From IMG/VR virus record IMGVR_UViG_3300010340_000989, positions 100,997 to 164,996 of that record: DNA of 64,000 bases; one strand, 5' to 3'. How positions within the stretch are numbered: position 1 is the stretch's first letter; every line of letters starts with the position of its first letter. Source of the DNA: a virus. Taxonomy: Duplodnaviria; Caudoviricetes. Positions 1-55,324 of this stretch are shown here, piece after piece. Both the position numbers and the translations under genes were made by a program. The notes under the pieces are model-generated. The model was not told where the DNA came from. It saw only the letters and a program-made list of their open reading frames with translations, and did no database searches.

Positions 1-314
1 TCATCCATGAAAACTTTTATAAATCTTCCTTTTCCCTTACCTTTTTTAAAATAAGATTGAGCTTTATCAATATCATAATTACCTTCTGTATCAGTTATGT
101 TATCAATTGCGTCTTCTGGTTCAACCCAAACACCATCATCTTTCATTTTGTCAATCGTGACATTCTTATCCTTTATAGTAGTTATTGGCTCATGATTTTT
201 TAATTTTTTAATTAAAACATTCCCTCTAAATTGACCATCTTTGGTTTTACCAAGCTCAGCAAGAGTCAGTTCGGCTTCTTCAAAAAACTTATCAAATTTT
301 ATTATCTTAGGCAT
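1..314 (-). CDS. Hypothetical protein, truncated by window edge, with capsid-targeting-like N-terminus (MPKIIKFDKFFEE...)
   Basis: Manually translated open frame from ATG at 314 to the edge; TAATATATA at 319-327 (-) just upstream. Confidence 0.75.
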   Translation of the reverse strand, partial: MPKIIKFDKFFEEAELTLAELGKTKDGQFRGNVLIKKLKNHEPITTIKDKNVTIDKMKDDGVWVEPEDAIDNITDTEGNYDIDKAQSYFKKGKGKGRFIKVFMD

Positions 315-347
315 AATCTATATATTAAAGTCTATATCTACAAATAA

Positions 348-375
348 AAACTAAATTTAATTTGAAGACTATAAC
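348..375 (+). promoter_or_regulatory. Putative middle-class promoter AAAC-N18-TATAAC
   Basis: Same motif and 18-nt spacing recur at 9 operon starts. Confidence 0.65.
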
Positions 376-394
376 AATAAAATAAAAATATCTA

Positions 395-1363
395 ATGGTA
401 TTAAATTGCATAATTGACGGAAATTATATACTTTCAAGATTAGTATTCACACTACATAAAAATAATCTATTATATGGTGCGCTTACACAATCATTAGAAA
501 ATACTATAACAAACTACAAAAAACTATATCCATTTTCAAATGTCTATTTGGTTTCGGATTCAAAAGAAAAATCTTGGAGAAAATCTTTAAATTCTAATTA
601 CAAAGCTAATCGTAAGAAAGATTCAGATATTGACTGGGCTTTTGTTTATAAAGCTTATGATGAATTTAAACAGAATTTAAAAGGAACAAAATTACTTGAA
701 TCACCTACTATTGAAGGTGATGATTGGATATCATTTTTAGTTCAAAAAACTAATGATATGAATCAATCTAATTTTATTGTCTCAAATGATCATGATATTA
801 AACAACTTATAAAATTCAATCTCGATTCTGAGTGGATTAATTTTATGAGTAATGAAATGTATAATCAAGAAAAGATTTTTCTACCAAAAAATTATCAAAT
901 TTTTTTAAATAAAATTAGCCAAAAAAATAATAATGACATTTTTGATCTAAATGATAATAGTGAGTTTTTATCATTAATGAATCGATTTGTAAATAGATAT
1001 CAACTATCTGAGATTTCTAATTTAGAATCATTATTGATTAAAATTATTTCTGGAGATACTAGTGATAATATACAATCTGTATATCAGACAAATAAATCTG
1101 GTAAAGTTAGAGGAATAGGACCGAAAGGTGCTTATTCTATCTATGAATCATATATTTCAGAATTTGGAGACCCATCTTTACAGGATCCAGACCTTTTTGA
1201 AAATATTGCTGATTTAATTTGTGAAAAGAAAAAGATTTCTAAAACAAACATTGAAAATATAGTGGGTAGAATTCAAGATAATATGAAATTAATTGATTTA
1301 AGAATTGACAACTTTCCGGATGAAATTGTCAATACCATGATAAAAGTTTATAATAATATTTGA
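395..1363 (+). CDS. T4 RNase H-like 5'-3' exonuclease (FEN family)
   Basis: IIDGN, SWRK..YKANRK, EGDD, SNDHD and GDTSDNI...GIGPK motifs. Confidence 0.85.
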   Translation: MVLNCIIDGNYILSRLVFTLHKNNLLYGALTQSLENTITNYKKLYPFSNVYLVSDSKEKSWRKSLNSNYKANRKKDSDIDWAFVYKAYDEFKQNLKGTKLLESPTIEGDDWISFLVQKTNDMNQSNFIVSNDHDIKQLIKFNLDSEWINFMSNEMYNQEKIFLPKNYQIFLNKISQKNNNDIFDLNDNSEFLSLMNRFVNRYQLSEISNLESLLIKIISGDTSDNIQSVYQTNKSGKVRGIGPKGAYSIYESYISEFGDPSLQDPDLFENIADLICEKKKISKTNIENIVGRIQDNMKLIDLRIDNFPDEIVNTMIKVYNNI

Positions 1364-1364
1364 T

Positions 1365-1754
1365 ATGGCTGAACTCATAGATGTTGCGAATGCTATGTTT
1401 AGAAACAAGAAAAATTGGAAAAATATAACCGATTTAGATAAAGAAAAGTACTTTTTTATCTTTAATCGATATTTTTCCAAAAAATATCCAACAAAGTCAC
1501 AAATATTGAATAATAAGAATATAGATAAAAGTAGTGCCTTAGATTTATGGTATTATTTTATGTTGGATAAAGGATATCCTGATTGGTTTTGGTCTAAGAG
1601 TCCAAAATTTGAAAAATCCGATATATCAGATATCGATTTTAAATTACTTTTTCTTAAACTAGGACTTAATAAAGAACAAGATTTAATATATTTATTAGAG
1701 AAATATCCAGATATTATTCAAGAAGAATTGAAATTTTATAAAACAAAAAAATAA
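1365..1754 (+). CDS. Probable clamp-loader small subunit (gp62-like)
   Basis: Size and KEKYFFIFNRYFS segment resemble T4-like gp62; replication context. Confidence 0.5.
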   Translation: MAELIDVANAMFRNKKNWKNITDLDKEKYFFIFNRYFSKKYPTKSQILNNKNIDKSSALDLWYYFMLDKGYPDWFWSKSPKFEKSDISDIDFKLLFLKLGLNKEQDLIYLLEKYPDIIQEELKFYKTKK

Positions 1755-1757
1755 ATT

Positions 1758-2297
1758 ATGGCAGAATCAAAGCAATGGTACGCAATTAGAACACAAAATA
1801 ATAGAGAAAAAAGTGTTTTAGAAAAACTTAATCTTGAATTATCAAGATCAGGATTGACAGATATAATGGGAAGACATATTATTCCAACCGAAAAAGTCTA
1901 TAGTGTTAAAAATGGGAAAAGAATTGCTAAAGAAAAAATTCTTTATCCAGGATATATTTTTATTGAAATTTCACATATAGGTGAAATTAATAATTTTTTA
2001 AAAGGAATTAATGGATCAGCAGGGTTTGTAAGAACTAAAAGTGGTGATATAAATCCTCTTAAAGAATTTGAAGTAAAAAGAATGTTAAAGGATCAGGAAA
2101 GTAATGATAATATTATTACTTATGGTAATTTGTTTTCAGTTGGTGAAGAAATTAAAGTCATTGATGGAGCTTTTACCACATTCAAAGGTAGTGTAAAAAG
2201 TATTGACGAGGATAAGAAAAAAATTAAAGTTGAAGTCTTAATTTTTAGTAGACCAACAATGGTTGAATTAGATTTTCTTCAAGTAGAAAGGGTATAA
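1758..2297 (+). CDS. nusG: Transcription elongation factor NusG
   Basis: WYAIRT..NRE, LYPGYIFI (NGN domain) and C-terminal KOW GEEIKVIDGAF...VELDFLQVER. Confidence 0.9.
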   Translation: MAESKQWYAIRTQNNREKSVLEKLNLELSRSGLTDIMGRHIIPTEKVYSVKNGKRIAKEKILYPGYIFIEISHIGEINNFLKGINGSAGFVRTKSGDINPLKEFEVKRMLKDQESNDNIITYGNLFSVGEEIKVIDGAFTTFKGSVKSIDEDKKKIKVEVLIFSRPTMVELDFLQVERV

Positions 2298-2299
2298 AT

Positions 2300-3667: not shown

Positions 3668-4147
3668 ATGAAATTTGATGTCAGTTTATTTTCACAATTA
3701 GAGAAAAAAGAATTTCAGGCACATTTTAATAGTGAACTTGATATTTCATCAATGAAGCTATTCTATGATAACTGCATCAGAATGGGTGGGGATAGTAATA
3801 GTAATATTCAGATAGCAACTATACATCCAGATATTTGGTTCGGAGATCATTTTGAGCTTTTAAATAGTAAAATAAAAATGGTTGTTGAATCACCAGTTTT
3901 TCAATTAGTTAGAATTGAGGGTGGTCAATTAGTTTGTCAAAACTATTCATCAGATCAAATTACTTTTTCAACAGATCAAGATTTAATTAATTTTTTTGAA
4001 CATATGTCTGAATTTGGTTCTTTAGCAGTTTTTAGTCTTGTTAAATACTTAGATGTTAGAACTCTACAATCTTATTGGAACTTAAGATATAAAGATATAT
4101 CTACAAAAGAAGAGATAAGAGATAAAAAGATTAGTTCTATTATTTAA
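3668..4147 (+). CDS. Hypothetical protein with C-terminal RxxKIxxII tag
   Basis: Operon ORF ending EEIRDKKISSII. Confidence 0.75.
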   Translation: MKFDVSLFSQLEKKEFQAHFNSELDISSMKLFYDNCIRMGGDSNSNIQIATIHPDIWFGDHFELLNSKIKMVVESPVFQLVRIEGGQLVCQNYSSDQITFSTDQDLINFFEHMSEFGSLAVFSLVKYLDVRTLQSYWNLRYKDISTKEEIRDKKISSII

Positions 4148-5303: not shown

Positions 5304-5374
5304 ATTTTATATATTAAATCCATTTGGGTTCGTTATAAAAATGTTTTTCAATTAAGAATCTTAATATATAAGAA

Positions 5375-5944
5375 ATGAAAGTAATTAAATTTATTGATTT
5401 TATAAACGAGAATTTACACGACACACCAGAGGAATATATTAAAATTGCTCTAAGTAAATTAAAAAAGAAAATTGAATCTTTTTTTGAGGTTGCTAAACCA
5501 GAAGGTGAAGAAGAGGAAAAGTTTATAACTATGAGTGATGCCTTGAAAAAAGGAAAAGAAGAAGAAAAGAAAAAATCTGAAATATCTTTTGCAGAGTTAG
5601 GTTTAAAGTTAGAAAGCTCAGAATTAAGTAAATATTCATCTTTAAATGATAGTATTAAATTTATAATGTCTGATGAAGATTTTAGATATGATTTAACAAT
5701 TATAATTCCATTAGATGAGGCAAAAGTAACAGACACTGATAAAGATTTTACAGACACTGATATTAAAAAATGTTATATTAAATTTAAAAAATATGACATG
5801 AAAAATAATGTTGAATTAATTGGTCAAATTAATAAAAATGTGGAAATAAGTTCAATAGATGAAAATCTTTTAATTGATCTTAAAATTCAATTAGATGATG
5901 AATATGGTGATGGTGATGAAAAATTAGAAATAGAAACTGAATAG
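5375..5944 (+). CDS. Hypothetical acidic protein, capsid-targeting-like N-terminus
   Basis: MKVIKFIDFINE; TAATATATA at 5362-5370. Confidence 0.75.
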   Translation: MKVIKFIDFINENLHDTPEEYIKIALSKLKKKIESFFEVAKPEGEEEEKFITMSDALKKGKEEEKKKSEISFAELGLKLESSELSKYSSLNDSIKFIMSDEDFRYDLTIIIPLDEAKVTDTDKDFTDTDIKKCYIKFKKYDMKNNVELIGQINKNVEISSIDENLLIDLKIQLDDEYGDGDEKLEIETE

Positions 5945-6708: not shown

Positions 6709-6787
6709 ATATTATATATTAATGATAGGACTTAAATAAGATCACAATGCTTATTTATTTTAAAATTTATTTATAATATATAAAATA

Positions 6788-7429
6788 ATGAAAAAGATAA
6801 CAGAAGAATTATTAAAAGACGCATTTATTGATTTGATTGATAATGGATGGCTTTTAAGGCTTAATAAAACCATTTATGTTGTTCATAAAGATGGGAATGG
6901 TGAATCCGGAAATACAATCTCACAAGCTTTGAAAAGTTTTACAAATACTAATAAAGCGGAAGAAGCAAAATGTAATAAATTAATTACAATATCTATCAAT
7001 AAACCTAATAATGATATTTTAAATTTTAGAGAATATAAAGAATTTCAACAAGATTTTTTAGGATCGTTATCTAGCTTCTGTGATGAAATTGAAGTTGATG
7101 AAGATAAAGTCACTGTCGAAAATGGATTTGGAAGCGAACAAACAATTACAATTATTCAAGATGAATTTAATATTAAAAATATTGTAAAATTTACTAATAT
7201 TTGTAGAATATTTAATATTAAATTTAATGGTAAAATTTCTATCGGATTATATGATGATGGTATTAAATTAAATATGCCTAGTGATGTAAAAGGAATAGCA
7301 ACAAACGGATGGTATCAGTTTAAAAGAGAAGCATTGGAAATGATTAGTAAAGATTTTGATATAATTGAAAAAGATTTTTCCTTATATTTGCATCCAAAAT
7401 TTGAATTCATAGAAAATGAAAATATTTAA
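6788..7429 (+). CDS. Hypothetical protein of the repeated D-x-F-x-D-L-x-D family
   Basis: LLKDAFIDLIDNG matches paralogs at 18.7-23.6 kb; late motif 6774-6782. Confidence 0.7.
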   Translation: MKKITEELLKDAFIDLIDNGWLLRLNKTIYVVHKDGNGESGNTISQALKSFTNTNKAEEAKCNKLITISINKPNNDILNFREYKEFQQDFLGSLSSFCDEIEVDEDKVTVENGFGSEQTITIIQDEFNIKNIVKFTNICRIFNIKFNGKISIGLYDDGIKLNMPSDVKGIATNGWYQFKREALEMISKDFDIIEKDFSLYLHPKFEFIENENI

Positions 7430-8678
7430 CTACTTACAATTTATCACAGAATCTAACGATTTATCAACACATTATCTTCCATCTTATGAAGATTGTTTGG
7501 AAATGTGCACAAAAGAAGAATCTGCTTTCTATGAGTCAAAATTTACTATTGATGGTTATAACATCTCAGTATTTAACTATCGTCTCGCTCAATATAAAGA
7601 CTTTGTAACACCTTTAGAAAATAGACCAGAAGTCAAAGCATACGAAATGAGAGGATTGACATTTGTATTTAATGAAGATGGTTCATTATTTAAGAGATTT
7701 TTATTGCTTGAAAAGTTTTTCAACATTAATCAAGTTCCAGAATCCATGTATTCTATTGTCAAGGATTACAAAATTAAATTTGTCAATAATAAAGAAGATG
7801 GCTCTATTGCTTCTTATATAAAATTACCCAATGGTAAAATATTAGGTAAATCCAAAATGGGATTTGATAACGAACAAGCCAATGGTATAAATAGAATTTA
7901 TAGAACTAGAAAAGATATAAAAATATTTGTTGATTGGTGTTTGGATAATGATATTACATCTATTTTTGAGTATGTATCACCAGCAAATCGTATTGTTCTA
8001 AGATATTTAGAAGAAGATCTTATTCTTTTAAGAATGAGAGATAATAGAACTGGTAAACACCTAAACATCAAAGACTATTTAGATAAAATTGATACTATCA
8101 GAATCGCACCATTTGAAGATGATAACAAAGATTTAGACTCTTTGGTGGAAGTTATTGCTAAAGAAGTTGATAAAGAAGGCGTTATTGTTCAAACAGAAGA
8201 TAAATATGGTAGAGACTTTTTCTTTAAAATTAAAACTCCTTGGTACTGTGAACGTCACGGTCTATTGACTAATGATATTTATAGAGAACATATCATAATT
8301 GGTTATATCTTAGATGATAAAATTGATGATATTCTTGGACAAATACCAGAAGATGAAAAAGAAGCACACTTGAGAATAAATAAAATTATTCAAATTGTTA
8401 AAAAAGTAATTGATGAAAAAGTTGCTGATATTAAAAAATCATATCAAGTTTATCTAGATATGGGTTCTAATAATAAAGAATATTCTTTGAAGTATTATAG
8501 AAAAGAGCCAAACTTTTCTTATGTAATGGGTGTTGCTAAAGGTATGGATATTTACGAATTGGCTAAAGATTGGCTAAGAGATAATACTAAAAGATTAATG
8601 TTAGCTAGAGATTTTTTAAAGAAAAAAGATCCAAGTCTTTTCTTCCAAGAACCAAATGAGGAAAATTTAGATTCATAA
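7416..8678 (+). CDS. T4 Rnl1-type RNA ligase
   Basis: EKFFN, motif I KEDGS, FEY, EGVIV, FKIKTPWY; N-terminus MKIFNYLQFITE. Confidence 0.9.
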   Translation: MKIFNYLQFITESNDLSTHYLPSYEDCLEMCTKEESAFYESKFTIDGYNISVFNYRLAQYKDFVTPLENRPEVKAYEMRGLTFVFNEDGSLFKRFLLLEKFFNINQVPESMYSIVKDYKIKFVNNKEDGSIASYIKLPNGKILGKSKMGFDNEQANGINRIYRTRKDIKIFVDWCLDNDITSIFEYVSPANRIVLRYLEEDLILLRMRDNRTGKHLNIKDYLDKIDTIRIAPFEDDNKDLDSLVEVIAKEVDKEGVIVQTEDKYGRDFFFKIKTPWYCERHGLLTNDIYREHIIIGYILDDKIDDILGQIPEDEKEAHLRINKIIQIVKKVIDEKVADIKKSYQVYLDMGSNNKEYSLKYYRKEPNFSYVMGVAKGMDIYELAKDWLRDNTKRLMLARDFLKKKDPSLFFQEPNEENLDS

Positions 8679-8821: not shown

Positions 8822-10687
8822 ATGAGCAAAAACGTAATAATTGGGATTGATCTAGGTACAACTAACTCAGCAGTTGCTGTTATAGAAAACGGAGAACCCA
8901 TTGTAATCACAAATTCAGAAGGTAAAAGAACAACACCTTCAATCGTTGGATTCACAGAAAATGATAGAAAAGTAGGTGATCCTGCTAAAAGACAAGCAGT
9001 TATAAATCCAACAAAAACAATCTATTCTATCAAAAGATTTATCGGTAAAGACTTTAGTAAGTGCTCTGATGAAATTACAAGAGTTCCTTACAAAGTTGTG
9101 AATAATGGATCAAATGTTCCATCAGTTCAGATAGATGATAGAAAATATACACCACAAGAAATTTCAGCAATGATTCTTCAAAAAATGAAAAAAACGGCTG
9201 AAGATTATCTTGGATATGAAGTAAAACGAGCTGTTATTACAGTACCAGCTTATTTTGGAGATGCTGAGAGAACCGCAACAATAGAAGCCGGTAAAATTGC
9301 CGGACTTGAAGTTGAACGTATTATTAATGAACCAACAGCAGCAGCTTTGGCATATGGACTTGATAAAAAAAATAAAGATGCTAAAATTTTAGTATTTGAC
9401 TGTGGTGGTGGTACACATGATGTATCAGTTCTTGAGATTGGAGATGGGGTTTTTGAAGTTAAATCTACTGATGGTGATGTTCATTTAGGTGGTGATGATT
9501 TTGATAATGCAATTATCACTTGGATGGTTAATGAGTTTAAATCAGAAAATTCTATGGATTTATCCAAAGATCCTATGGCTCTTCAAAGATTAAAAGAAGC
9601 TGCTGAAAAAGCTAAAATTGAATTGAGTTCAACAAGTGAGAGTGAGATTAATCTTCCTTATATAATTGCAAAAGATGGAATGCCATTACACTTTGTTAAA
9701 AAATTGACTCGTTCTAAATTTGATCAATTAACATCATCTCTTGTCGATAGAGCTATTGCCTGTGCTAAAACTGCATTAAAAAATGCTGGAATTAAAGCAT
9801 CAGATATTGATGAAATCATTTTAGTAGGTGGATCTACAAGAATTCCATCAATTCAAGAAGCAATTGAAAAGAATTTTAATAAAAAACCAAATAAATCAGT
9901 AAATCCGGATGAAGTTGTAGCTATAGGTGCAGCTATTCAAGGAGCTGTTTTAAATGGTAGTATTACAGACGTTTTACTTCTTGATGTTACCCCACTTTCA
10001 TTAGGTATTGAAACAATGGGTGGTGTATTCACAAAATTGATTGAAGCAAATACAACAATTCCAACAAGAAAATCAGAAACATTCTCAACTGCATCAGATA
10101 ACCAACCATCGGTTGAAATTCACGTTCTTCAAGGTGAAAGACCAATGGCTCGTGATAACAGATCACTTGGTAGATTCCATTTAGATGGTATTATGTCAGC
10201 ACCACGAGGAATTCCAAAAATTGAATGTACTATTGATATTGATGCTAATGGAATACTTTCAGTAACCGCTAAGGATCAAGCAACAGGGAAAGAAAATAAA
10301 ATACGAATTGAAGGAGGATCACAACTTTCTAAAGAAGAAATTGAAAGAATGAAAGCTGAAGCTGAAGCAAATGCTGAGTCTGATAAACTTGAAAAAGAAA
10401 AAGTAGATAAATTGAATCAAGCAGATAATATGATTTTTCAAACAGAAAAACAAATTAAAGAGTTTGATGAGAAATTAACTGAGGCTGATAAAACAGACCT
10501 AAATAATATTCTTAATGAATTAAGAACCGCTCATAAAGATCAAGAAATTGATAAAATTGATTCTGAAATGAATAAATTAAATGAAACTTGGTCACGAATT
10601 AGTACAAATTTATATTCACAAACTAATTCAGAAGAAGCTGGTGATGGTGCCCCGGCTGAAGATATTAACTTTGAAGAGGTTAAGTAA
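8822..10687 (+). CDS. dnaK: Chaperone DnaK (Hsp70)
   Basis: [36 protein letters not shown]; Bacteroidetes-style C-terminus FEEVK. Confidence 0.98.
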
Positions 10688-10725: not shown

Positions 10726-11976
10726 TTATTCATCGTAAGGATCAATCTCATCATACCCTCCACCAGTACTCTGAAGTTCATAATTGGCTTTAATTGCACT
10801 ACCTTTATTGGATAATTCACCAGTTTCAGAATTTAAATACATTAATGAATCTAAATATGGAAATTCATCTTCCCATTTTTGTAAATCAACTATAATAGTT
10901 TGATTATTTTTTGTATCCGATCCGTTTTCAATTGTAAAATCTGATCCATAATTTTTAGATTTTCTATACCACCATCCATTTTTTTCTGCAAATTTTCGGA
11001 ATAAATCAATATCATTATCTTTAGTTGTATAAATTCTATCCATAAAATAATAATCATCTCTTGTTTTCCAAAGTAATGCTCTTCCAACTATTTTATTTGA
11101 TGTGTATTTACCGTTTAAAATCTCACCATTTTCATCATATAATATAACTAATTGACAAACATCTGGATTAGCAGAATATATGTATAAATAACTACCAGGA
11201 ACTTCCGACATACAAGAATTTGCTAAAGTGCCATTGTCCTGATCATAATAATTATCTAAATTATACCAATAAGTTATATCATCACCTTTAACAATATTAA
11301 ATCTATTAAAAGAATCATTTATAATATCAATTGTAGATTTATATTGATTTACAAATTTCTCAATATCAGAATCATTAGCATTAATTTTAGTTGCCCTAAT
11401 AAGAGCTCTAATTATTCTTCCTATTTTTATTTTATTCCTATTAGTAGTCCAAACTTTTTGAAAAGAAGAATCATACTCTTCAAGAGCTTCCTTATTAATA
11501 ATAGTTCTTTTTCCTTTATCTTCTTCTTCCCCATGGATCGATAGAGTACATTCGAATAAACAGTATATCTTACCACTTGAACCTACTGTTGTCCCAAGTA
11601 TTTTACCAACTGTTCCAAATTCGGGTTGATAGACATCCTGAGTTCTTGTATGATTTAAATTATCATATATTCTTTGATTTCTTTCAGATCCTGTTAAATA
11701 TCTTCCACTATCAATAACTTTATATAATTCTTCTTTGTCACCTATCAACTCTTTAGCTTTTCTATCAGGTATAAAACTAACAGTATCATTTTCATCAGTT
11801 GTATCAATATAATTATATTGAGTATCAATATCTACATCTTGTAAAGACATAATTTGGTTAGAAAGAGGGGATTTTATAGAACTCAATGCACTATAAAATC
11901 TTTTAGAAAATCCAATTTTAGATTCAAATAGTTTTTCTAATTTTTTTTCTAATAAAAAATCAAAATAATTAAACAT
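10726..11976 (-). CDS. Conserved phage protein (SCM...GRALLW...MDRIY...FPYLDS family), function unknown
   Basis: Recognisable motif series; N-terminus MFNYFDFLLE; TTATATATA upstream. Confidence 0.7.
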   Translation of the reverse strand: MFNYFDFLLEKKLEKLFESKIGFSKRFYSALSSIKSPLSNQIMSLQDVDIDTQYNYIDTTDENDTVSFIPDRKAKELIGDKEELYKVIDSGRYLTGSERNQRIYDNLNHTRTQDVYQPEFGTVGKILGTTVGSSGKIYCLFECTLSIHGEEEDKGKRTIINKEALEEYDSSFQKVWTTNRNKIKIGRIIRALIRATKINANDSDIEKFVNQYKSTIDIINDSFNRFNIVKGDDITYWYNLDNYYDQDNGTLANSCMSEVPGSYLYIYSANPDVCQLVILYDENGEILNGKYTSNKIVGRALLWKTRDDYYFMDRIYTTKDNDIDLFRKFAEKNGWWYRKSKNYGSDFTIENGSDTKNNQTIIVDLQKWEDEFPYLDSLMYLNSETGELSNKGSAIKANYELQSTGGGYDEIDPYDE

Positions 11977-12024
11977 ATTGATAAATAATATTTATTCTTA
12001 TATATAAAATATAAGAATTAACAT

Positions 12025-17620: not shown

Positions 17621-18742
17621 ATGAAAACTTTTATTTATGGTTTATTAGACCCAGATACTAAATTAGTAAGATATATTGGTAAATCAAATAATCCAAATAA
17701 GCGGTTATATAATCATATTTTTAATTGTAGAAAATCACCAACCCATAAAAATAACTGGATTAAATCATTACTTGATAATAATAAAAAACCTTTAATAGAA
17801 ATAATAGATGAAGTTTTAATAGAGGAATGGCAAATATGGGAGATTTTTTATATTGATAAATATAAAAAAGATGGATTTGATCTTACAAATTTATCAAATG
17901 GTGGATCAGGTCCAACATTTCAAGAGTATTATGATAAGGCAAAAACTATTGAAAAAATGAAACTTCGTCATAAATTATTCCCAAACTATAATCGTTCTGG
18001 AAATAATTTAAAACAACCGATTGATAAAGATTTATTATATCAGTTATACATAGTTGATAATCTTTCTATACCAAAAATATCGGAAAAATTGCAATGCTCT
18101 GAGAAGAAGGTTTTTGATAATCTAAAAGATTATAGTATAAAAAAAGATAAGAGAGTATGGAAAAAGCAATGTGCATCCAGTGATAAAAAGATTGTTTTAC
18201 AATATGATTTATCAGGAGAACTTATAAAGGAGTGGAATAGTTTGAAATCTGTAAGTAAATTTTATAAAAACACAAATATCTCAAGTTGTTGTAGAGGAGA
18301 ATCAGTAACTGCATCCGGTTTTATTTGGAGATATAAAGATGAATTTATAGATATAGATTTAAATAAATTAAATTATCAAAAAAGAAAAGTATCACAATAT
18401 GATTTACAAGGAAATTTTATTAGATCTTTCGATTCAATTAAAGAAGCATCATTAAATGGATTTAACGAGGGTAATATTCAAGATTGTTGTGCTGGTAGAT
18501 TGAAATCATCTAAGGGGTTTATTTGGAGATATTTAGAAGATTCTCAACCGCTTATGTATAAGAAAAAAAATGTTAAATCAGTTTTACAATTTTCAATTTC
18601 TGGTGAATTTATTAAGGAATGGGATTCTATCGCAATGGTATCTAGAGAGTTAAAAATTGGAGGGAATAGTATAGTTACTTGTTGTAAGGGTAAATATAAA
18701 TCGGCGGGAGGTTTTATTTGGAAGTATAAAGATAATATATAA
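17621..18742 (+). mobile_element. Free-standing GIY-YIG homing endonuclease with three NUMOD1-type repeats
   Basis: FIYGL...RYIGKS...R..NH; 3x VLQYDL.G..IKEW.S...CC.G...AxGFIWRY. Confidence 0.88.
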
Positions 18743-18745: not shown

Positions 18746-19144
18746 ATGATATATTTAAAATTATTTGAAAATTTTAGTAGGCATAAAGATTGGAAAAATC
18801 CTGATGAAAATGATAGAATATTTGAAATTATATTTATGTCTTTTTTAGATATTTCTGATAAATATAATTTTGAAAAAGTTGATGATGTTTATAAATCGGA
18901 TATTAATGGGACTATTTATCAAATAAAATACTCAACAAAACGAGAAGAATATAATTTAGAAATATTTCTAATAGATAATTTAGAAGGTGTATCTGATGAT
19001 GGTAGAAATCTAAAAAAAGATCTTTTATCTGATTTTAATAAATTTATTTCACATTTAGAATCATTCGGTTTAAAATGTATTATGAATAGAGAAAGAGGTA
19101 GTTTAATAATTGATTTTTACATCTCTAAAAACTCTAATATATAA
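18746..19144 (+). CDS. Putative internal head protein (tag plus DxD family)
   Basis: MIYLKLFENF; TAATATATA 18733-18741. Confidence 0.65.
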   Translation: MIYLKLFENFSRHKDWKNPDENDRIFEIIFMSFLDISDKYNFEKVDDVYKSDINGTIYQIKYSTKREEYNLEIFLIDNLEGVSDDGRNLKKDLLSDFNKFISHLESFGLKCIMNRERGSLIIDFYISKNSNI

Positions 19145-19147: not shown

Positions 19148-20026
19148 ATGAAACATATTAAACCATATAAATTATTTGAATCTTCAAATAGATTTGTTGA
19201 AGAGATTGGTATAACATTAGATCAAGTTCAAGATATTTTCATAGATGTTAAAGATTCTGGATTAGAAGTTGATGATATTTATATAGGAAATGCTTTATCA
19301 TTAGGAAATAATGAAATAGTAACAGATCATAATGATTTAGTATTTATTGACTCATATAGAAGTTTTTCAATTAGATTAAAATCTACCAATCGTCATAATT
19401 TTCATATAGAAAATGATTTATTTGATGAATTAAAATCATCAATTGGACATATTGAGTCTGAATTTAATTTACAATTAGGTAATATTTACCTAAGAACATT
19501 TGATGGAGTTTGGTTTAATAATGTAGATACGATGGAAAAGTATATTAATGAATTACCATTTGCTAAAAAAGTATCTTTAAAATGGATTAGTTATTTGGAT
19601 TTAACTTTTAAAATTAAAGCGAATTCAAATGAATATTTAACAGAAAAATATAAAAATCAATATTCTTTACTGAAATCAATATTAAATGATGTTAAAGATA
19701 TACTTATTGATTTAACGGATGATAATGATTATTTAAGTTATAATATTGATTTTAATGAGTATTATAAAATTAAGGGAACTGAACTTGGCCAGGCGATGTA
19801 TGCAGATTCAATTGATATTCATTTACTAAATGAAGAAGATATATTTTATATCTTTAATGAAGATATTCTACCTACTTTAAAAAAGTTAGAATCATTTTTG
19901 AAACAATATGATTTAAATATTGATATTGAATTGGTAAATAAAGATATAACTTATTCATTAGATGATTTTGTTAATGAGCATGGTGATAAAAAATCTAATG
20001 AATTAATAATAATAATTATATACTAA
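19148..20026 (+). CDS. Putative internal head protein, two tandem DxD-family domains
   Basis: MKHIKPYKLFES; QDIFIDVKD and KDILIDLTD; TAATATATA 19135-19143. Confidence 0.65.
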   Translation: MKHIKPYKLFESSNRFVEEIGITLDQVQDIFIDVKDSGLEVDDIYIGNALSLGNNEIVTDHNDLVFIDSYRSFSIRLKSTNRHNFHIENDLFDELKSSIGHIESEFNLQLGNIYLRTFDGVWFNNVDTMEKYINELPFAKKVSLKWISYLDLTFKIKANSNEYLTEKYKNQYSLLKSILNDVKDILIDLTDDNDYLSYNIDFNEYYKIKGTELGQAMYADSIDIHLLNEEDIFYIFNEDILPTLKKLESFLKQYDLNIDIELVNKDITYSLDDFVNEHGDKKSNELIIIIIY

Positions 20027-20040: not shown

Positions 20041-20391
20041 ATGAGAATAAAAAAATTTGAAAATTTTAGTCAAGAAGAGGAATATGATGGATTAAATTCA
20101 TCACAAGAAGAAGAGCTTTTTGAAATATTTAATGAGTGGGTAGATAAAAAATATCCGGATTTATCAAAAGAAGATTTGATAGAGAAATTTACACCAGGCA
20201 CTGATGAGTTTGTAGAGTTTTTATCAGAATTAGAAAATGAAACAGATTGGTTTGATTATACTCAAATTGATAAAATATATCAAGAAATATCTATATATAT
20301 AAATGATTTATATGAGGATGATACTGAATGGGATGATACTGAGTATGAAGATGGTGAAAACGATGATGATGGTGAAAACGATGAAGATTAA
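20041..20391 (+). CDS. Very acidic putative internal head protein
   Basis: MRIKKFENF; D/E-rich tail. Confidence 0.65.
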   Translation: MRIKKFENFSQEEEYDGLNSSQEEELFEIFNEWVDKKYPDLSKEDLIEKFTPGTDEFVEFLSELENETDWFDYTQIDKIYQEISIYINDLYEDDTEWDDTEYEDGENDDDGENDED

Positions 20392-20399: not shown

Positions 20400-20789
20400 A
20401 TGAAATATTTAAAAAGATTTGAAAGTGTAATTGATGATAATATCATTTCATCTTTAAAGGATATCTTTAAAGATTTAAGTGATGATATTTTTGATGTTTA
20501 TATTGAATATAAAACTTTTTTTGGTGAAAAAAAACCATTTTTAACCATATCTATTTATAAAAATTCTTCTGGTAAGGAAAATGCACCAGCAGAAGATATT
20601 TATTTATATGAAATAAAAGATTATATTAAAAGATCAATCGAATATCTAAGATCTGAGGGACTTGAACTCTCTACTGTGATTCCATATGGTAGTAGAAATT
20701 CCTTTATAGGAAGACGTGAGGAGGATGTAGAAAATTGGAATCCAGATGATATAGTAATGGCAATGAATGTATATTTTAAAGAAATATGA
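20400..20789 (+). CDS. Putative internal head protein, paralog 1
   Basis: MKYLKRFES; LKDIFKDLSDD; EIKDYIKR. Confidence 0.7.
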   Translation: MKYLKRFESVIDDNIISSLKDIFKDLSDDIFDVYIEYKTFFGEKKPFLTISIYKNSSGKENAPAEDIYLYEIKDYIKRSIEYLRSEGLELSTVIPYGSRNSFIGRREEDVENWNPDDIVMAMNVYFKEI

Positions 20790-21175
20790 AATATTTAAAA
20801 AGATTTGAGAATTTAAAAGAAGATAATTCAGAAATACTATCTGATTTAAAAGATATTTTATCTGATTTAACAGATGATGATTTTGATATAGAAATTATTG
20901 ATAAAGAAAAAAGAAAAAACCAGAGTGGTGATTGGGATAATATCCGTATTCGTTTTATTAAGATAAATGGTAGATACTGTACTGAATTTGAATTATCCGA
21001 AATAAAGGATTATGTTAAAAGAATCATTGTTTATATGAGAAATAATGATTTTAAACTTAAGTATATTTATGCTTTTAAACAGCAGAACATGTCCAAAGAT
21101 TTTAATCTAACAATTGATATTGATCAATGGGACTTAAATATGAAAGTTTTCGGTATTAATTTTTACTTCGATTAA
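20786..21175 (+). CDS. Putative internal head protein, paralog 2
   Basis: MKYLKRFEN; LKDILSDLTDD; EIKDYVKR. Confidence 0.7.
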   Translation: MKYLKRFENLKEDNSEILSDLKDILSDLTDDDFDIEIIDKEKRKNQSGDWDNIRIRFIKINGRYCTEFELSEIKDYVKRIIVYMRNNDFKLKYIYAFKQQNMSKDFNLTIDIDQWDLNMKVFGINFYFD

Positions 21176-21189: not shown

Positions 21190-21597
21190 ATGAAATATTT
21201 AAAAAGATTTGAGAAGTTAGAAGATAATTCAGAAATATTATCTGATTTACAGGATATTTTATCTGATTTAAAAGATGAATATTTTGACATTTCTATTTTA
21301 CCAGGAACTTGGAAGAACAATTATTGTATTATGATTGGATTTCTAAAAGATACAACAGGTGGAGTAGCTAAGGAATTTAAATTATCTGAAATAAAAGAAT
21401 ATATTGATAGATTAATAGAATATCTTCAATCTAATGGATATTATATTGAAGATATTGACGCTTTTGACTTATCCAAAAGTCTTAAATTTCCGGGTGATAA
21501 AGGATCAAACTTTGATTGTGTGGGTGCTTGGCCATGTATAAATGAGTGGGATTTAGATACTAAGGTTATTGGTATCAATTTTTATTTTAATAATTAA
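21190..21597 (+). CDS. Putative internal head protein, paralog 3
   Basis: MKYLKRFEK; LQDILSDLKD; first ~80 nt nearly identical to the gene at 20786. Confidence 0.7.
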   Translation: MKYLKRFEKLEDNSEILSDLQDILSDLKDEYFDISILPGTWKNNYCIMIGFLKDTTGGVAKEFKLSEIKEYIDRLIEYLQSNGYYIEDIDAFDLSKSLKFPGDKGSNFDCVGAWPCINEWDLDTKVIGINFYFNN

Positions 21598-21607
21598 TAT
21601 ATAAATT

Positions 21608-22108
21608 ATGAAACATTTAAAATCATTTAAACAGATATCAGAAGCAATTCGACCAGGATACATAAGTCAGAAGTCATTAGATAGAAACACAAAACCACCT
21701 AAATTTATAGGAGATATTAAACAACCTGTTGAAATAAGAATTGATGTTGAAGCTGTTGGTCATGCTCTTTCTAGACAATATAGACATGGTGTGACTGATA
21801 CTGATGGTAAAATTGAAGCTGGAATATCAAAAGATGAGATATTAGATACTATTGAGGCATCAGTTGAGGAAATAACAATTGCTCTTATGCAAGATAAATT
21901 TGATATCTATCAAAATGAGGATGATTATCCTACTCGTGGTGTTAGAGAAGGAGAACCAAATAGATTTGTTATTCGTAAAAAAAGTAATAATTTAAATATT
22001 GTTTGTCAATTAGAACCAGGTGATAATGAATTCACATTAACTGTTATTACGGTTATGAAAAAAGAGGATTTTAAACCATATAGAGGTCAATTTGTATTGG
22101 AAGTATGA
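21608..22108 (+). CDS. Tagged protein with possible DUF4258/RelE-like RNase fold
   Basis: MKHLKSFKQISE; HALSRQYRHG...ISKDEI...LTVITVM pattern; TAATATATA 21595-21603. Confidence 0.5.
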   Translation: MKHLKSFKQISEAIRPGYISQKSLDRNTKPPKFIGDIKQPVEIRIDVEAVGHALSRQYRHGVTDTDGKIEAGISKDEILDTIEASVEEITIALMQDKFDIYQNEDDYPTRGVREGEPNRFVIRKKSNNLNIVCQLEPGDNEFTLTVITVMKKEDFKPYRGQFVLEV

Positions 22109-22896
22109 AGCATTTAAAAAGATATAATTCAGTAAATGAAAACTCTGTAAGATTGGCAGCTGATATTTTTTTTAGTGGAAAGGATGGTGATTGGATGTCT
22201 GGAATAAATGAACCATTTTTAATAAAAGAATGTAGTATTATATTTCCAGATTCTACAATCATGGTCTTCAACGTTCTAAAAGAAGACTTTGACTCTGAAT
22301 TTTTGAATTTAAAAATTTCACCTAAACAGGACTATACTAATATAAATTCTGTATTCTATCTATCGATTTATGGTGATAATATTCAATTTGAAAGTTTAAA
22401 TGAATATAAATTTGTCAGAAAATATCTTACAAAAGCTGACATATTAGAACACACGTTTGATGCATATATCTATTCTGACAACCATAATGGTGCATTCGAA
22501 ATAAAATTAAATATTCTTTCACCGATTGATATAGGTTCAATGATAATGAGACCAGGGATAATTGGATTTCATAATAATTTAATGAAATCCAATACTAAAA
22601 CATTTGTTGAAAAAAATAAAAATTGGAAATCCGATATTACAAATTTCTTTGATGATTATACAAAAATTCAAGCTCTATATAGTATGATTGAAAATAAAAT
22701 AGATTCTGAATCTATTTTTGAAATTAAACCATGTGATATTAAAATAATAGATAATTTAACAATAGATGGTGCATTATATCTTAAAAATATACTTAGTGGA
22801 ATAAAAAATATTGAAATTTTAAAAGAAATTTTAAGAGATTGCAACTCAAATATTGAATCAAATAAATATTTAAAATTAATTGAAGAATTTTTATGA
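22105..22896 (+). CDS. Putative internal head protein
   Basis: MKHLKRYNSVNE; ATGA coupling. Confidence 0.65.
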   Translation: MKHLKRYNSVNENSVRLAADIFFSGKDGDWMSGINEPFLIKECSIIFPDSTIMVFNVLKEDFDSEFLNLKISPKQDYTNINSVFYLSIYGDNIQFESLNEYKFVRKYLTKADILEHTFDAYIYSDNHNGAFEIKLNILSPIDIGSMIMRPGIIGFHNNLMKSNTKTFVEKNKNWKSDITNFFDDYTKIQALYSMIENKIDSESIFEIKPCDIKIIDNLTIDGALYLKNILSGIKNIEILKEILRDCNSNIESNKYLKLIEEFL

Positions 22897-23576
22897 AACA
22901 CTTAAAAAGATTTAATCTAATTAAAGAGTCACATTCTCAAGAAAATGACGTGGATATTATTATTGATTCTGTGCAAGATTTTTTAGATGATGATAGAAAT
23001 ATATTATTTAAATCATCAATTGATGATATGACACATCAAGACTATATTGATAAGAATTCAAACTATTTAGGGTTTAAACCAATTGTAAATACTGGAAGTT
23101 TGATTAGAGGTCATTTTATTATGGTATTTCGAGATATAAAAGATTATTCAGATTTCTTATTAATTAATAACCAAATGCAATCAGTTTTTGGTAGATTAAA
23201 AGATGAAGATTGGACAATGTATGATATGAAACTTAGAACTTCTCCTCCACTAAATAATCAAGGTGATGCTAGATTCATATACTTAGCTTTTTATTTTTCA
23301 AAACCTGATCAGAAATTAGATGAAAAATTTAAATGGCCAGATGAAAAAGATTTGAAAGAAATTTTTGAAAAATATGGATTAATTAATCTATATTTTGATT
23401 ATTATAAACCTTCTCGTTCAGACGGTCCAGTTGAAGTAACAATAGAATTTGATTCTACAAGCTACGATGGTAAAGTTACTGAAAACGCTGAAGAGCTTTT
23501 TGAATTAGTTTGTAATAGATTTGGATTTAGTAGTTATAATTATAGTTTTGGTGATTATAGAGTGACTTTGGTTTAA
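22893..23576 (+). CDS. Putative internal head protein (DxD family)
   Basis: MKHLKRFNLIKE; IDSVQDFLDD; ATGA coupling. Confidence 0.65.
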   Translation: MKHLKRFNLIKESHSQENDVDIIIDSVQDFLDDDRNILFKSSIDDMTHQDYIDKNSNYLGFKPIVNTGSLIRGHFIMVFRDIKDYSDFLLINNQMQSVFGRLKDEDWTMYDMKLRTSPPLNNQGDARFIYLAFYFSKPDQKLDEKFKWPDEKDLKEIFEKYGLINLYFDYYKPSRSDGPVEVTIEFDSTSYDGKVTENAEELFELVCNRFGFSSYNYSFGDYRVTLV

Positions 23577-26219: not shown

Positions 26220-26247
26220 TTTATAATGTAAATAAGTCAGAAAGTTT
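26220..26247 (-). promoter_or_regulatory. Putative middle-class promoter AAAC-N18-TATAAA for the guaC operon
   Basis: Motif embedded in the last codons of the upstream gene. Confidence 0.55.
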
Positions 26248-26577
26248 TAAGTCTCTTAAAATCATCTGAGATTTAATCTCAGTCACTTCTAACGCATCTA
26301 CCTCAAGTTTAATAATTTTATGGTCTCTATTATCAGATAATCCTCTTATAGAAGAAATAGAAAATTTTGCGTTATAAAAAACATTATCTATCTTATAGAT
26401 AACGTCTTTGAATTTTTTACCTTTCAATCCAATAAAATGTATATTAGATGGACATTTTATTTTAATAGAATAATAATATGTAGAGTAGCTTGACCATTTA
26501 TTTCTTACTTCTTTAAAATTTTTAAATTTTTCCAAAACTTCAAATTTTTCAAATCCAGAAAATTGTATCCAGTTCAT
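26221..26577 (-). CDS. Hypothetical protein with C-terminal RxxKL tag
   Basis: Ends MILRDLKLSDLFTL. Confidence 0.7.
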   Translation of the reverse strand: MNWIQFSGFEKFEVLEKFKNFKEVRNKWSSYSTYYYSIKIKCPSNIHFIGLKGKKFKDVIYKIDNVFYNAKFSISSIRGLSDNRDHKIIKLEVDALEVTEIKSQMILRDLKLSDLFTL

Positions 26578-28817: not shown

Positions 28818-29357
28818 ATGATGAAAACGTATTTAGAATTTATTAAAGAATCTAAAAAATATACCGGTGCAGGGTGTGTTATGATAGATTTCAATTTTGA
28901 AAATTGGGATGAGTTATTAGAATCAATTGTTGAAGATGACATCTATGAAGAAGATGGTAAAAACTACGGATTACAACCACGACCACATTTAACATTACTA
29001 TATGGTATTCTACCTGAAGTCACCGATGAACAAATTTTAGAATGTTTTAAGGGATTTACAGAAGATGATTTTAAAATTGAGATTAATGGAATTTCTATAT
29101 TTGATACAAATAATAATTTTGATGTTGTTAAGTTAGGTGTTAAATTAACTCAACAACTGAAAGAAATAAATAAAAGATTATCAGATCTTCCAAACTCTAA
29201 TCAATATTCAGAGTATATACCACACATCACTTTATCTTTTATTAAAAAGGGTAAAGGTGGGAAATATATTGACCCTGATTATAAATATAATGTTAAAGAA
29301 ATAAAAAGCATAATCTATTCAAGACCGGATGGAAGTGAATTTAAAATAAATCTCTAA
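28818..29357 (+). CDS. 2H phosphoesterase, Acb1/T4 gp57B-like, with capsid-targeting-like N-terminus
   Basis: Two HxT motifs PHLTLLYG and YIPHITLSF; starts MMKTYLEFIKE. Confidence 0.8.
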   Translation: MMKTYLEFIKESKKYTGAGCVMIDFNFENWDELLESIVEDDIYEEDGKNYGLQPRPHLTLLYGILPEVTDEQILECFKGFTEDDFKIEINGISIFDTNNNFDVVKLGVKLTQQLKEINKRLSDLPNSNQYSEYIPHITLSFIKKGKGGKYIDPDYKYNVKEIKSIIYSRPDGSEFKINL

Positions 29358-53696: not shown

Positions 53697-53713
53697 TTAT
53701 TATATTCTAATTT

Positions 53714-53896
53714 TTAGAAAAGTTTTCTTTTAGACCTTGAAATATAAATACCAAGTCCAAAAAGGAAAAGTGATAATACATCTAATCCCAACTCAGCTGG
53801 CGATTCTGGGAAAAAATTACCACCAAATGACTTAGTTATAAAAAACTGTGCAAGAATGGTAAGGATTATAATTGAGTTTCCTATAAATCGATTCAT
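53714..53896 (-). CDS. Small two-TM membrane protein
   Basis: Start moved to ATG 53896, downstream of TATATTTG at 53916-53923. Confidence 0.6.
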   Translation of the reverse strand: MNRFIGNSIIILTILAQFFITKSFGGNFFPESPAELGLDVLSLFLFGLGIYISRSKRKLF

Positions 53897-53969
53897 ATCT
53901 CTTTGTTTTGTTTTACAAATATACGAAAAATAAGATACAAAAAATAATATATAAAAGAAAAATTCATCC

Positions 53970-54323
53970 ATGAAAAACATCAAATCTTTTGGAAGTTTTA
54001 AAATAAACGAAAATACTGAAAATATTGAAAACTCAGAAAAACTAACTGGAGAAGTAACTCTTTACAGACTAACATCACATCCTGTTGTTGATTTATCTCA
54101 ACCAGGAGAATTCTATTTTTCAGATTCATCAAAGGTAAATCCTGATTTTTTAGAAAATAAAGAATCTAACGATCTTTATCTAATTACAGTAAAATGTGAT
54201 TCTAGTAATATTGATGATGAAAAATCTGAACTAGAGTGTGCTAAATTAGATTGTGATTGTATTGTTGCTGTTAAGGATGATACTAAATGTGAGGTTATTT
54301 CAGTAGAACCATATAAAGGATAA
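53970..54323 (+). CDS. Tagged protein, possible degenerate ADP-ribosyltransferase-like fold
   Basis: MKNIKSFGSFKINE; TLYR...G.FYFS pattern; TAATATATA 53945-53953. Confidence 0.5.
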   Translation: MKNIKSFGSFKINENTENIENSEKLTGEVTLYRLTSHPVVDLSQPGEFYFSDSSKVNPDFLENKESNDLYLITVKCDSSNIDDEKSELECAKLDCDCIVAVKDDTKCEVISVEPYKG

Positions 54324-54327
54324 TAAT

Positions 54328-54498
54328 ATGAAATATTTAAAAACATTTGAAAGTCTAGATAAAGTAAAATCAATTCATGTATCAACACACGAATTGGATG
54401 AGTATGATCAACCAGTTCTTAATATTGAAACAGAAAATGGTCGAAAATACTACCTAAATTTAAAATCATGGAATGATTTTGATGATACTGAAGATTAA
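54328..54498 (+). CDS. 56-aa tagged protein missed by the ORF track (MKYLKTFESLDK...)
   Basis: Manual translation; same N-terminal tag as neighbours. Confidence 0.75.
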   Translation: MKYLKTFESLDKVKSIHVSTHELDEYDQPVLNIETENGRKYYLNLKSWNDFDDTED

Positions 54499-54530
54499 AG
54501 AAATTTTAAAAAGAAAATATATTCTTACTA

Positions 54531-54842
54531 ATGAAATACTTAAAAATATACGAAGAGTTTGACTCTCAAGGATACCAATCACATTGGGATAAATTTACAA
54601 AATGGTTGTCTGATAAAGATTTTGATCTATATGACGGTTTAGAAGATTTAAAATCTAAATTTATGGAAATTGCTAATGATGATAGTTTAGCAGTTGAAGA
54701 AAAGTCAAATGAAATTGCAGGTTATCTAGACGAGAAATGGGGTCTTTATGACGGATATATGGATGTGGTTGATTACCTTGAATCACTATTTATGGATGAG
54801 GATGAATATCATGATGGTGAATATGATGATGAAAATTACTAA
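54531..54842 (+). CDS. Very acidic putative internal head protein
   Basis: MKYLKIYEEF; D/E-rich. Confidence 0.7.
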   Translation: MKYLKIYEEFDSQGYQSHWDKFTKWLSDKDFDLYDGLEDLKSKFMEIANDDSLAVEEKSNEIAGYLDEKWGLYDGYMDVVDYLESLFMDEDEYHDGEYDDENY

Positions 54843-54844
54843 CT

Positions 54845-55324
54845 ATGAGATACTTAAAAAAGTTTAATGAGAGTGAATCTAAGGATTATGACTTTTATAT
54901 GTCAATATATGATCCACTTGATAAGTTTGTTGTTGGTGCTTATATGATAATTGAAGATTCTGAAAAAACAATAACAGTTTTAAACCTTCAAGAGAAAGAA
55001 GACACAAGAGGATTTTTCGCAGATGGTAAGACACCATATACATTTATGCCGTTTAAAGTTAGATTACCCAAATCACAAATAGAAGTTTTAGATTCAGTAG
55101 ATAACATGGATGGATTTAACTGGATTAAGATACCTTATTGGTTAATTAAAAATAATCCAGGTTTAAAAATACAAAGAATTAAAAAGTCAAAAAGATTTTC
55201 TAACAACTCAACATTACATAAGTTATTGAAGCCTGAAATGGTTGATGATGATGTTAGAAAATATTTAAGTATTACTGATAAAGATCCTAGAACTATAATT
55301 AATCTGAATTTTATTAAAAAATAA
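54845..55324 (+). CDS. Putative internal head protein
   Basis: MRYLKKFNESE. Confidence 0.7.
   Translation: MRYLKKFNESESKDYDFYMSIYDPLDKFVVGAYMIIEDSEKTITVLNLQEKEDTRGFFADGKTPYTFMPFKVRLPKSQIEVLDSVDNMDGFNWIKIPYWLIKNNPGLKIQRIKKSKRFSNNSTLHKLLKPEMVDDDVRKYLSITDKDPRTIINLNFIKK

Follow-up and report, generated by a model that had tools for sequence, protein, structure and literature searches.

A short portable N-terminal peptide on many unrelated megaphage proteins is probably a capsid-targeting signal

Results

Tagged genes in the window

The window considered here, 64,000 nucleotides (nt) of virus DNA, is the final 64 kb of a linear IMG/VR viral contig of 164,996 bp in total (IMGVR_UViG_3300010340_000989), and the feature under study is a short N-terminal peptide, here called the tag, that stands on many otherwise unrelated proteins encoded in it. 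The contig has 26% GC and a CheckV completeness of ∼52%. It is most closely related to the 'uncultured phage' genomes LR745206, LR756502, LR756504 and LR756501 (634-735 kb), members of the Mahaphage clade, for which Bacteroidetes hosts are predicted (PMC7162821). An earlier note on the window had picked out about 18 tagged open reading frames (ORFs), most of them behind a TAATATATA-type motif or in an operon that starts with one, and had read the tag as a capsid-targeting sequence (CTS) like that of phage T4. All 18 lie where the note had placed them and begin with the N-termini it gave, but the total proved to be far larger, as 38 of the 246 ORFs on the 165 kb contig, about one gene in six, are tagged.

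Two forms of the tag were distinguished. Variant A, the majority form, reads M-K-[YH]-[LI]-K-x-[FY]-[EN], with a longer version ending Y-K-[LI]-F-E-S, and variant B reads x-K-x-[YF]-x-x-F-[ILV]-x-E-[SNA]. At the left end of the window, positions 1..314 (−) hold the N-terminal part of a tagged ORF of 522 amino acids (aa; genome 99742-101310) that has no Pfam family and a variant-B-like start, MPKIIKFDKFFEE; a phage-type promoter element, TAATATATA, lies at 319..327 (−) and starts 13 nt upstream of the ORF start. The same element at 5362..5370 (+) starts 13 nt upstream of ORF 5375 (5375..5944, +; 189 aa), which carries variant B (MKVIKFIDFINEN), retains the tag in its LR745206 orthologue and has a tag ending INEN, like a conserved site in the capsid proteins described below. 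A third copy, at 6774..6782 (+), heads a two-gene unit (6788-7429 and 7416-8678) whose second member, 7416..8678 (+), is a tagged T4-type RNA ligase 1 of 420 aa (Pfam PF09511, 69.5 bits; variant B, MKIFNYLQFITES). On the other strand, ORF 11976 (10726..11976, −; 416 aa; variant B, MFNYFDFLLEKK) is preceded by a one-base variant of the element, TTATATATA, at 11999..12007 (−).

The largest group is an array of nine tagged genes on the plus strand, headed by TAATATATA at 18733..18741. It begins with ORFs of 132 aa (18746..19144; variant A, MIYLKLFENF) and 292 aa (19148..20026; MKHIKPYKLFES, a long variant A with an L-F-E-S end), followed by one of 116 aa with a very acidic body (20041..20391; MRIKKFENF). 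Next come three paralogues, of 129 aa (20400..20789; MKYLKRFES), 129 aa (20786..21175; MKYLKRFEN) and 135 aa (21190..21597; MKYLKRFEK), and the array closes with ORFs of 166 aa (21608..22108; MKHLKSFKQ), 263 aa (22105..22896; MKHLKRYNS) and 227 aa (22893..23576; MKHLKRFNLIKES). Two further elements inside it, at 19135..19143 and 21595..21603 (both +), start 13 nt upstream of ORFs 19148 and 21608, respectively. A tagged 2H phosphoesterase (LigT/Acb1-like; 179 aa; Pfam PF13563, 35.1 bits; MMKTYLEFIKES) occupies 28818..29357 (+). Finally, TAATATATA at 53945..53953 (+) heads an array of four tagged plus-strand genes, encoding proteins of 117 aa (53970..54323; MKNIKSFGSFKINEN), 56 aa (54328..54498; MKYLKTFES), 103 aa (54531..54842; MKYLKIYEEF; tag retained in the LR745206 orthologue) and 159 aa (54845..55324; MRYLKKFNES). 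In all, eight sites of the TAATATATA type head tagged genes or arrays in the window, in agreement with what the earlier note had seen.

The information in the tag is concentrated in residues 1-8, weak at 9-10 and at background from about residue 11, and a Glu is present within residues 8-14 in 289 of 290 pooled tags. With its 8-13 residues and a predicted helical structure, the tag is a portable motif at the N-terminus of the products of many unrelated genes, which belong to what is treated below as the late-promoter class. An AlphaFold2 (AF2) model of the 2H phosphoesterase shows a helix at residues 5-14 (predicted local distance difference test score, pLDDT, 54-64) preceding a domain modelled with pLDDT >90.

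The tag is confined to ORF starts

A position-specific scoring matrix (PSSM) was built from the tags of the contig, with seeds taken from the ORF set by a regular expression, and it divided ORF starts into two distinct groups. Scores of at least 8 were reached by 25 of the 246 ORF starts, by 14 of 44,456 internal windows and by none of 821 internal Met positions. After shuffling of the N-terminal residue pool a mean of only 0.11 starts scored as high. With training and test halves kept separate, the figures were 10 of 90 N-termini and 8 of 17,213 internal windows; the enrichment of the tag at N-termini exceeds 200-fold. The contig-trained PSSM also found 85 of 956 ORF starts in LR745206 (634 kb), compared with 17 of 165,658 internal windows, several of which are true starts that had been over-extended by the longest-ATG ORF rule. 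The totals of tagged ORFs used here, the 38 of 246 on the contig and 112 of 956 in LR745206 with the T4-like variant included, combine the PSSM with a second regular expression for that variant. At LR745206 514145, 621678, 496511, 425401, 379809 and 472106 the 'internal' tag follows a Met at residue 19-24, 50 or 89; these are true starts, and the tag could be used to mark start sites when genomes of this kind are annotated.

None of the 315 ORFs of PTm1, a Bacteroidota phage with 30% GC and a T4-type head, is tagged, which argues that the motif is no by-product of AT-rich coding. Together with the counts at internal windows and internal Met positions and with the shuffles, this genome rules out a compositional artefact.

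A strict DNA pattern for variant A was found 47 times in LR745206, 51 times in LR756502, 25 times in LR756504 and 11 times in LR756500, with zero matches for the reversed pattern in every case; it gave none in LR756501 (735 kb), Lak-B5, PTm1, MaF61, pT24 or MA9V-2. LR756501 uses variant B instead. The core of that variant, [YFW]xxF[ILV]xE, stands at the N-terminus of 8 of 246 ORFs on the contig, 19 of 956 in LR745206 and 21 of 550 in the first 400 kb of LR756501, where ∼0.001-0.002 would be expected per ORF, and the residue after its Glu is S, A or N in 29 of 50 instances. A scan of IMG/VR recovered >119 tag stretches in contigs of 5-500 kb. Small complete phages that use the tag were considered and rejected, the 27-42 kb IMG/VR contigs tested being fragments that are 4-15% complete; a complete 482 kb IMG/VR genome was also tested and has a Gp23 capsid gene (148 bits). 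A literature search for the tag motif turned up nothing relevant.

The tag is portable between unrelated proteins

Once the first 20 residues had been removed, 36 tagged proteins fell into 32 BLAST components, their bodies being mostly unrelated. The tag stands on four known folds, those of Rnl1, 2H, GIY-YIG and Toprim, and the cargo is for the most part small acidic proteins; beyond the members named here, none has a recognised family. In an alignment of ORF 7416 with T4 Rnl1 from the PDB, T4 residue 1 falls at about residue 20, so that tag and linker form an extension of ∼19 residues. The 2H phosphoesterase of ORF 28818 (LigT match, weak Acb1 match) belongs to a family whose alignment shows tag residues Y5 and F8 to match the H-x-T motifs in conservation; the most distant homologue, which is untagged, begins directly at the domain. 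Elsewhere on the contig there are a tagged stand-alone Toprim primase fragment (genome 3875-4471, +; phrog_849, 1.7e-35, profile positions 147-340 of 435) and a tagged GIY-YIG/NUMOD3 homing endonuclease (genome 70708-71547, +); one tagged LR745206 protein has weak DHH/wHTH matches. Orthologues in LR745206 retain the tag at 28-45% body identity. On one orthologous body variants A and B have been exchanged, and in one pair of homologues the tag is present in one and absent from the other.

Tagged bodies are acidic, with a net charge per residue of -0.066 and -0.053 on the contig and in LR745206, respectively, compared with -0.004 and -0.013 for untagged proteins (p 7e-7 and 2e-9). A single copy of all 112 tagged LR745206 proteins would amount to 2.55 MDa, set against 413 MDa of DNA, so capacity would be no obstacle to their packaging. 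The LR745206 homologue of the 2H phosphoesterase, from 448257 onward, has 438 aa compared with 179 aa in the window, an extra domain being fused or following in frame.

Nearly or fully identical sequences of the tagged 2H phosphoesterase (ORF 28818) and RNA ligase (ORF 7416) occur on a contig of 479,895 bp; a much fuller assembly of the phage probably exists and should hold its head module.

The protease-scaffold of the relatives resembles the tag

LR745206 encodes, in order, a Portal_T4 protein (195 bits), a protease ORF of 707 aa and a Gp23 capsid protein (94 bits). The first ∼265 residues of the 707-aa ORF match a head maturation protease (phrog_207, 4e-30; weak PF03420), and a profile of the ORF and its relatives matches the T4 gp21 structure 5JBL (E 2.5e-5) across the invariant His and Ser blocks. 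In cultured relatives the same gene is annotated 'prohead core scaffolding protein and protease'. A module of the gp20/gp21/gp23 type is present in LR745206, in LR756500, LR756501, LR756502 and LR756504, and in the complete 482 kb IMG/VR genome.

The C-terminal part of the protease fusion consists of about eleven tandem 14-residue repeats, N-I-A-Y-S-E-Y-[LI]-A-E-N-[LV]-D-K, predicted with modest confidence to form one long helix; the AF2 model was poor (mean pLDDT 52.6), and from it we took no more than the secondary structure of the repeats. The LR745206 scaffold contains 19 matches to [ILVM]xE[SNA], where 1.5 are expected from the proteome and 2000 composition-matched shuffles averaged 4.5 and never exceeded 13, and its density of such matches is the highest among the 171 proteins of at least 300 aa. 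The scaffolds of the other four megaphages have 11-18 matches; across all five, shuffle means were 2-4.5 and maxima 8-13 in 2000. Since T4 gp21 cuts its scaffold to small peptides after Glu (PMC5694885, PMC7411985), these sites are likely to be cleaved by the protease.

The repeat core, Y-S-E-Y-[IL]-A-E-N, follows the same pattern as variant B and as the Y-Q-E-F-I-A-E of the T4 CTS, whose published sequence, MKTYQEFIAE (PMC8442874), fits the variant-B core. Inside the proteins of LR745206 the tag core has 28 matches, and the protease-scaffold, with eight, ranks first of 956; inside those of the 735 kb phage it has 19, and the protease-scaffold again ranks first, with six. The capsid proteins resemble the tag as well: all five share the N-terminal block W-M-S-E-Y-A-E-F-H-x-I-N-E-N, with a conserved site of the form Y-x-x-F..[ILM]-x-E-N whose [ILM]-x-E-N stands ∼50 residues ahead of the conserved shell block. 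In T4 itself (sequences from NC_000866 95000-125000) the gp23 maturation site, F-G-S-F-L-T-E|A, shows an [arom]xxF[IL]xE core (the propeptide has 65 residues, PMC5694885), and gp22 starts M-L-K-E-Q-L-I-A-E-A, near to the CTS, and contains 21 [ILVM]xE sites in 269 residues. That a CTS resembles the scaffold and ends in a protease site is thus true of T4 too. The N-terminus of T4 gp23, KWKPLLEG, is also recognisably like the megaphage capsid N-terminus, KWSPVLEN.

Variant A was compared with the same pattern. In common with the T4 CTS it starts M-K and has a hydrophobic residue 4, F7 and an acidic residue 8 or 9; it lacks the F-I-x-E end. The T4 prohead protease cuts after Glu in the motif [L/I]-x-E; among variant A tags [ILVM]xE[SNA] is present in 33%, and [ILVMFY]xE[SNA] in 57%, compared with 5-7% of untagged N-termini. 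Variant A genes have the same promoter class and the same exclusivity towards the C-terminal tag described below, and variant A exchanges with variant B on an orthologous body. We regard variant A as a putative derivative of this signal.

Promoter classes and a second, C-terminal tag

The exact 9-mer TAATATATA, whose extended consensus is TTAATATATAA, occurs 191 times in LR745206, with ∼149 copies within 80 nt upstream of ORFs. Both TTAATATATAA and the host-type element TAnnTTTG show a sharp mode 11-15 nt before the ATG and a second mode at -26 to -35; the first mode leaves the start codon only ∼4-5 nt behind the element, which points to leaderless or near-leaderless mRNAs. Promoters were compared in LR745206 for genes with an upstream gap of at least 25 nt, using a loose version of TAATATATA. 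This element precedes 47 of 48 N-tagged genes, none of which has the Bacteroidota host-type TAnnTTTG (0/48), compared with 112 of 363 other genes, of which 40 have TAnnTTTG. Genes for the portal, protease-scaffold, capsid, head-decoration and sheath-like proteins and for UvsX also have TAATATATA or a one-base variant, 28-40 nt ahead of their starts. In LR745206 TAATATATA is missing ahead of two PolB genes, DnaB, and genes judged by eye to encode clamp loader, ThyA and DnaK, and its ligase-like and RNase H-like genes have the host-type element. Because virion genes carry TAATATATA and replication genes lack it, we treat it as the putative promoter of a late or structural class. Among ten large genes behind the element, PHROG annotation recognised only the head-decoration protein and UvsX, and searches for Terminase_6C and Baseplate_J gave no matches.

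Other small proteins end in a C-terminal tag, R-[DENQ]-x-[KQRL]-[ILV]-x-x-[ILVF]-[ILVFG]; in the window a form like R-[DE]-x-K-[IL]-x-x-[IL]-[LF] is found on the ORFs at 3668-4147 (+), 26221-26577 (−), 62638-63027 (−) and 63419-63958 (−). The contig has 38 N-tagged and 28 C-tagged proteins and none with both (p 0.011), and LR745206 has 112 and 113, again with none carrying both (p 5e-7). In the promoter comparison TAATATATA preceded 1 of 31 C-tagged genes and TAnnTTTG 10 of 31, so that the C-terminal tag, with its host-type or other promoters, marks a different expression class.

Discussion

The explanation that we consider probable, if by no means secure, is that in the tag this lineage of megaphages has its own counterpart of the T4 CTS, used on a very large scale. 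The tagged late-class proteins would then probably be packed into the virus head. Capsid targeting, as put forward in the earlier note, found support in every prediction that could be examined computationally, namely portability, the CTS pattern of variant B, the head module of the relatives, the scaffold repeat and the promoter class. We infer from sequence comparison that tagged proteins would dock to the scaffold, be cleaved, stay in the head and be injected, in steps that can be envisaged as follows. The tag would in effect be one copy of the 14-residue scaffold repeat (Y-S-E-Y-[IL]-A-E-N) with a protease site, so that a tagged protein would co-assemble with the scaffold core as the capsid shell forms around it. 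A protease of the gp21 type would recognise [ILV]-x-E-[SNA] in the scaffold repeats and likewise where the tag ends, cleaving behind the Glu. The head would lose the tag and the scaffold peptides but retain the cargo, which would reach the next host together with the DNA.

The likeness to T4 extends to several levels. In that phage the CTS of the internal proteins IPI-III and of Alt is removed by the prohead protease gp21 (Mullaney & Black 1996; PMC8442874, PMC7411985, PMC3012670). As there, proteins not otherwise related open with a peptide of ∼10 residues; variant B has K-x-Y-x-x-F-I-x-E followed by a small residue, with ORF 28818 agreeing with MKTYQEFIAE at 8 of 10 positions; the lineage has homologues of gp20, gp21 and gp23; and the signal resembles both the scaffold sequence and the capsid-protein cleavage site. 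Unlike T4, where a handful of proteins are so marked, these genomes tag 38 of 246 and 112 of 956 ORFs, mostly with a further variant, MKYLKxFE, which obeys the [L/I]-x-E rule only partly. In the megaphages, whose hosts are predicted to be Bacteroidota, protease and scaffold are one fusion protein, the scaffold being built of 14-residue repeats in tandem. T4 internal proteins are, moreover, small, highly basic and DNA-associated (PMC8442874), whereas the tagged bodies are acidic.

A second comparison is with the giant phages phiKZ, 201phi2-1 and SPN3US, in which ejection proteins have propeptides that are cut by a gp21-like protease (PMC5694885, PMC7411985). In these phages, too, many proteins are loaded into the head and cut after Glu, and the propeptides are thought to target the prohead, all of which is predicted here. 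However, their propeptides are mostly >100 residues long and share no short motif, whereas the tag has 8-13 residues and is shared; their site is A/S/G-x-E (PMC5694885), whereas the candidate site here is [ILV]-x-E-[SNA]; and ∼8-19 proteins are processed in those phages, compared with >100 tagged here. Outside the phages, short portable terminal helices that dock unrelated enzymes to a shell interior are familiar as the cargo-loading peptides of encapsulins and the encapsulation peptides of microcompartments. Unlike the tag as interpreted here, these are cellular, are not cleaved and bind the shell rather than a disposable scaffold, and they are not known to resemble it in sequence.

The main rival to capsid targeting, unlikely though deserving of attention, is that the tag is a docking helix for a late partner other than the capsid, such as DnaK/DnaJ, another part of the virion, or a replication or assembly factory, its likeness to the T4 CTS being due to chance. 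A short amphipathic helix with basic and aromatic residues is a common type of docking element, DnaK and DnaJ are both encoded in the window, the tagged bodies are acidic and some are enzymes with roles inside the cell, and the C-terminal tag shows that the lineage uses address peptides more widely. This idea is weakened by the links to the scaffold and to the protease site: the core of the tag is the unit of the prohead scaffold repeat and ends in a motif enriched there, and the T4 CTS pattern is matched in a lineage that has T4-type head genes. Nor would chaperone binding need the Glu that is so nearly invariant at residues 8-14.

It is less probable again that the tag does direct proteins to the prohead core, where they would serve as auxiliary core or scaffold parts to be degraded or expelled, with no injected payload. 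The tagged proteins are acidic, like the T4 core proteins gp67, gp68 and gp22, their tag mimics the scaffold repeats, and T4 core proteins are cut and then leave the head (PMC7411985). But folded enzymes, RNA ligase 1 and the 2H phosphoesterase, keep their catalytic motifs beside the tag, which would be senseless in disposable filler, and the bodies show no periodic enrichment of cleavage motifs, only the scaffold and two small proteins standing out. The diversity and turnover of the set are instead like those of the hypervariable internal-protein loci of T4 (PMC3012670).

Very improbable, in our view, is that the tagged genes are one old, fast-evolving family whose shared start is the last remnant of common descent and has no addressing role. 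In its favour are the frequent tandem arrays and a few neighbouring genes that are detectably paralogous. The four different known folds largely refute this explanation, and further arguments against it are that a distant 2H homologue and T4 Rnl1 have no tag, that the tag matches the catalytic residues in conservation within the 2H family, and that information content is at background after residue 10. Conservation at the level of nucleic acid, as a site for translation initiation or a repressor, or as a recombination cassette of promoter and first codons, can hardly be entertained: the promoter element is often just 4 nt before the ATG, so that leaderless first codons could matter, but at none of the tag positions is codon choice fixed: synonymous codons are used in proportions like those of the whole genome (for Leu, both TTR and CTN), which indicates selection on the peptide rather than the RNA and refutes the idea for practical purposes, and conservative replacements (K/R, Y/H, L/I, F/Y) predominate and promoterless genes within arrays retain the tag.

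Several points count against the CTS interpretation itself. The head module is absent from the 165 kb contig and was analysed in relatives only; that of the present phage was not identifiable among the top 120 protease-scaffold homologues, and as the module is missing on this fragment its existence is taken from the relatives. Variant A fits the T4 cleavage rule only in part (33%, or 57% if F or Y is allowed at P3), and no internal scaffold-like template for it was found, most apparent matches being over-extended starts. No tag was found in the cultured relatives PTm1, MaF61, pT24 and MA9V-2, in a search for which the 47 matches in LR745206 served as positive control. A homing endonuclease and a primase fragment are odd cargo for a virion, acidic proteins are not an obvious companion for packed DNA, and we know of no precedent for >100 cargo species per genome. 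Finally, TAATATATA also stands ahead of UvsX and, on the contig, of dnaK, so that 'late' is a class label rather than a measured time.

Taken with the C-terminal tag, the data suggest a broader scheme, which we advance tentatively as having somewhat less than an even chance of being right. Two mutually exclusive address peptides may sort the accessory proteome of phages of the Mahaphage type, with >100 late-class proteins per genome (∼12% of genes) loaded into the head by an N-terminal copy of the scaffold repeat and delivered alongside the DNA as a very large pre-made set of effectors, and the C-tagged, early-class proteins directed to another partner.

If the tag is indeed a CTS, giant phages of Bacteroidota would deliver tenfold more kinds of pre-made protein than any phage studied, and injected RNA-repair and cyclic-nucleotide-phosphodiesterase-like enzymes could blunt host defences before the phage is expressed. 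There would also be a sequence-only rule for listing the packaged or injected proteome of uncultured giant phages. The origin of a CTS could lie in a copy of a scaffold repeat with its protease site, an idea that fits T4 as well, and the pair of tag and scaffold could make a compact, portable tool for encapsidation.

Some minor observations remain. Sites of the TAATATATA class in the window start at 319, 4145, 5308, 5362, 6713, 6774, 8751, 18733, 19135, 21595, 25036, 27826, 31973, 36443, 53945, 56534 and 58672. The phage has its own DnaK, at 8822-10687 (+), which shares 83% identity with that of LR745206, and a protein judged DnaJ-like by its N-terminus, at 13925-14959 (+); an exact TAATATATA lies 71 nt upstream of dnaK on the contig, and none is found within 90 nt of dnaK in LR745206. 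A protein of 83 aa encoded at LR745206 460435-460686 (−) has three to four repeats of the scaffold type (YEDYIAES, YSEYISEN, YCDYLCEN) and ends ...RKKKIKNLFN. It is the only protein seen to join scaffold repeats to a match to the C-terminal tag, and could be an adaptor or a mini-scaffold.

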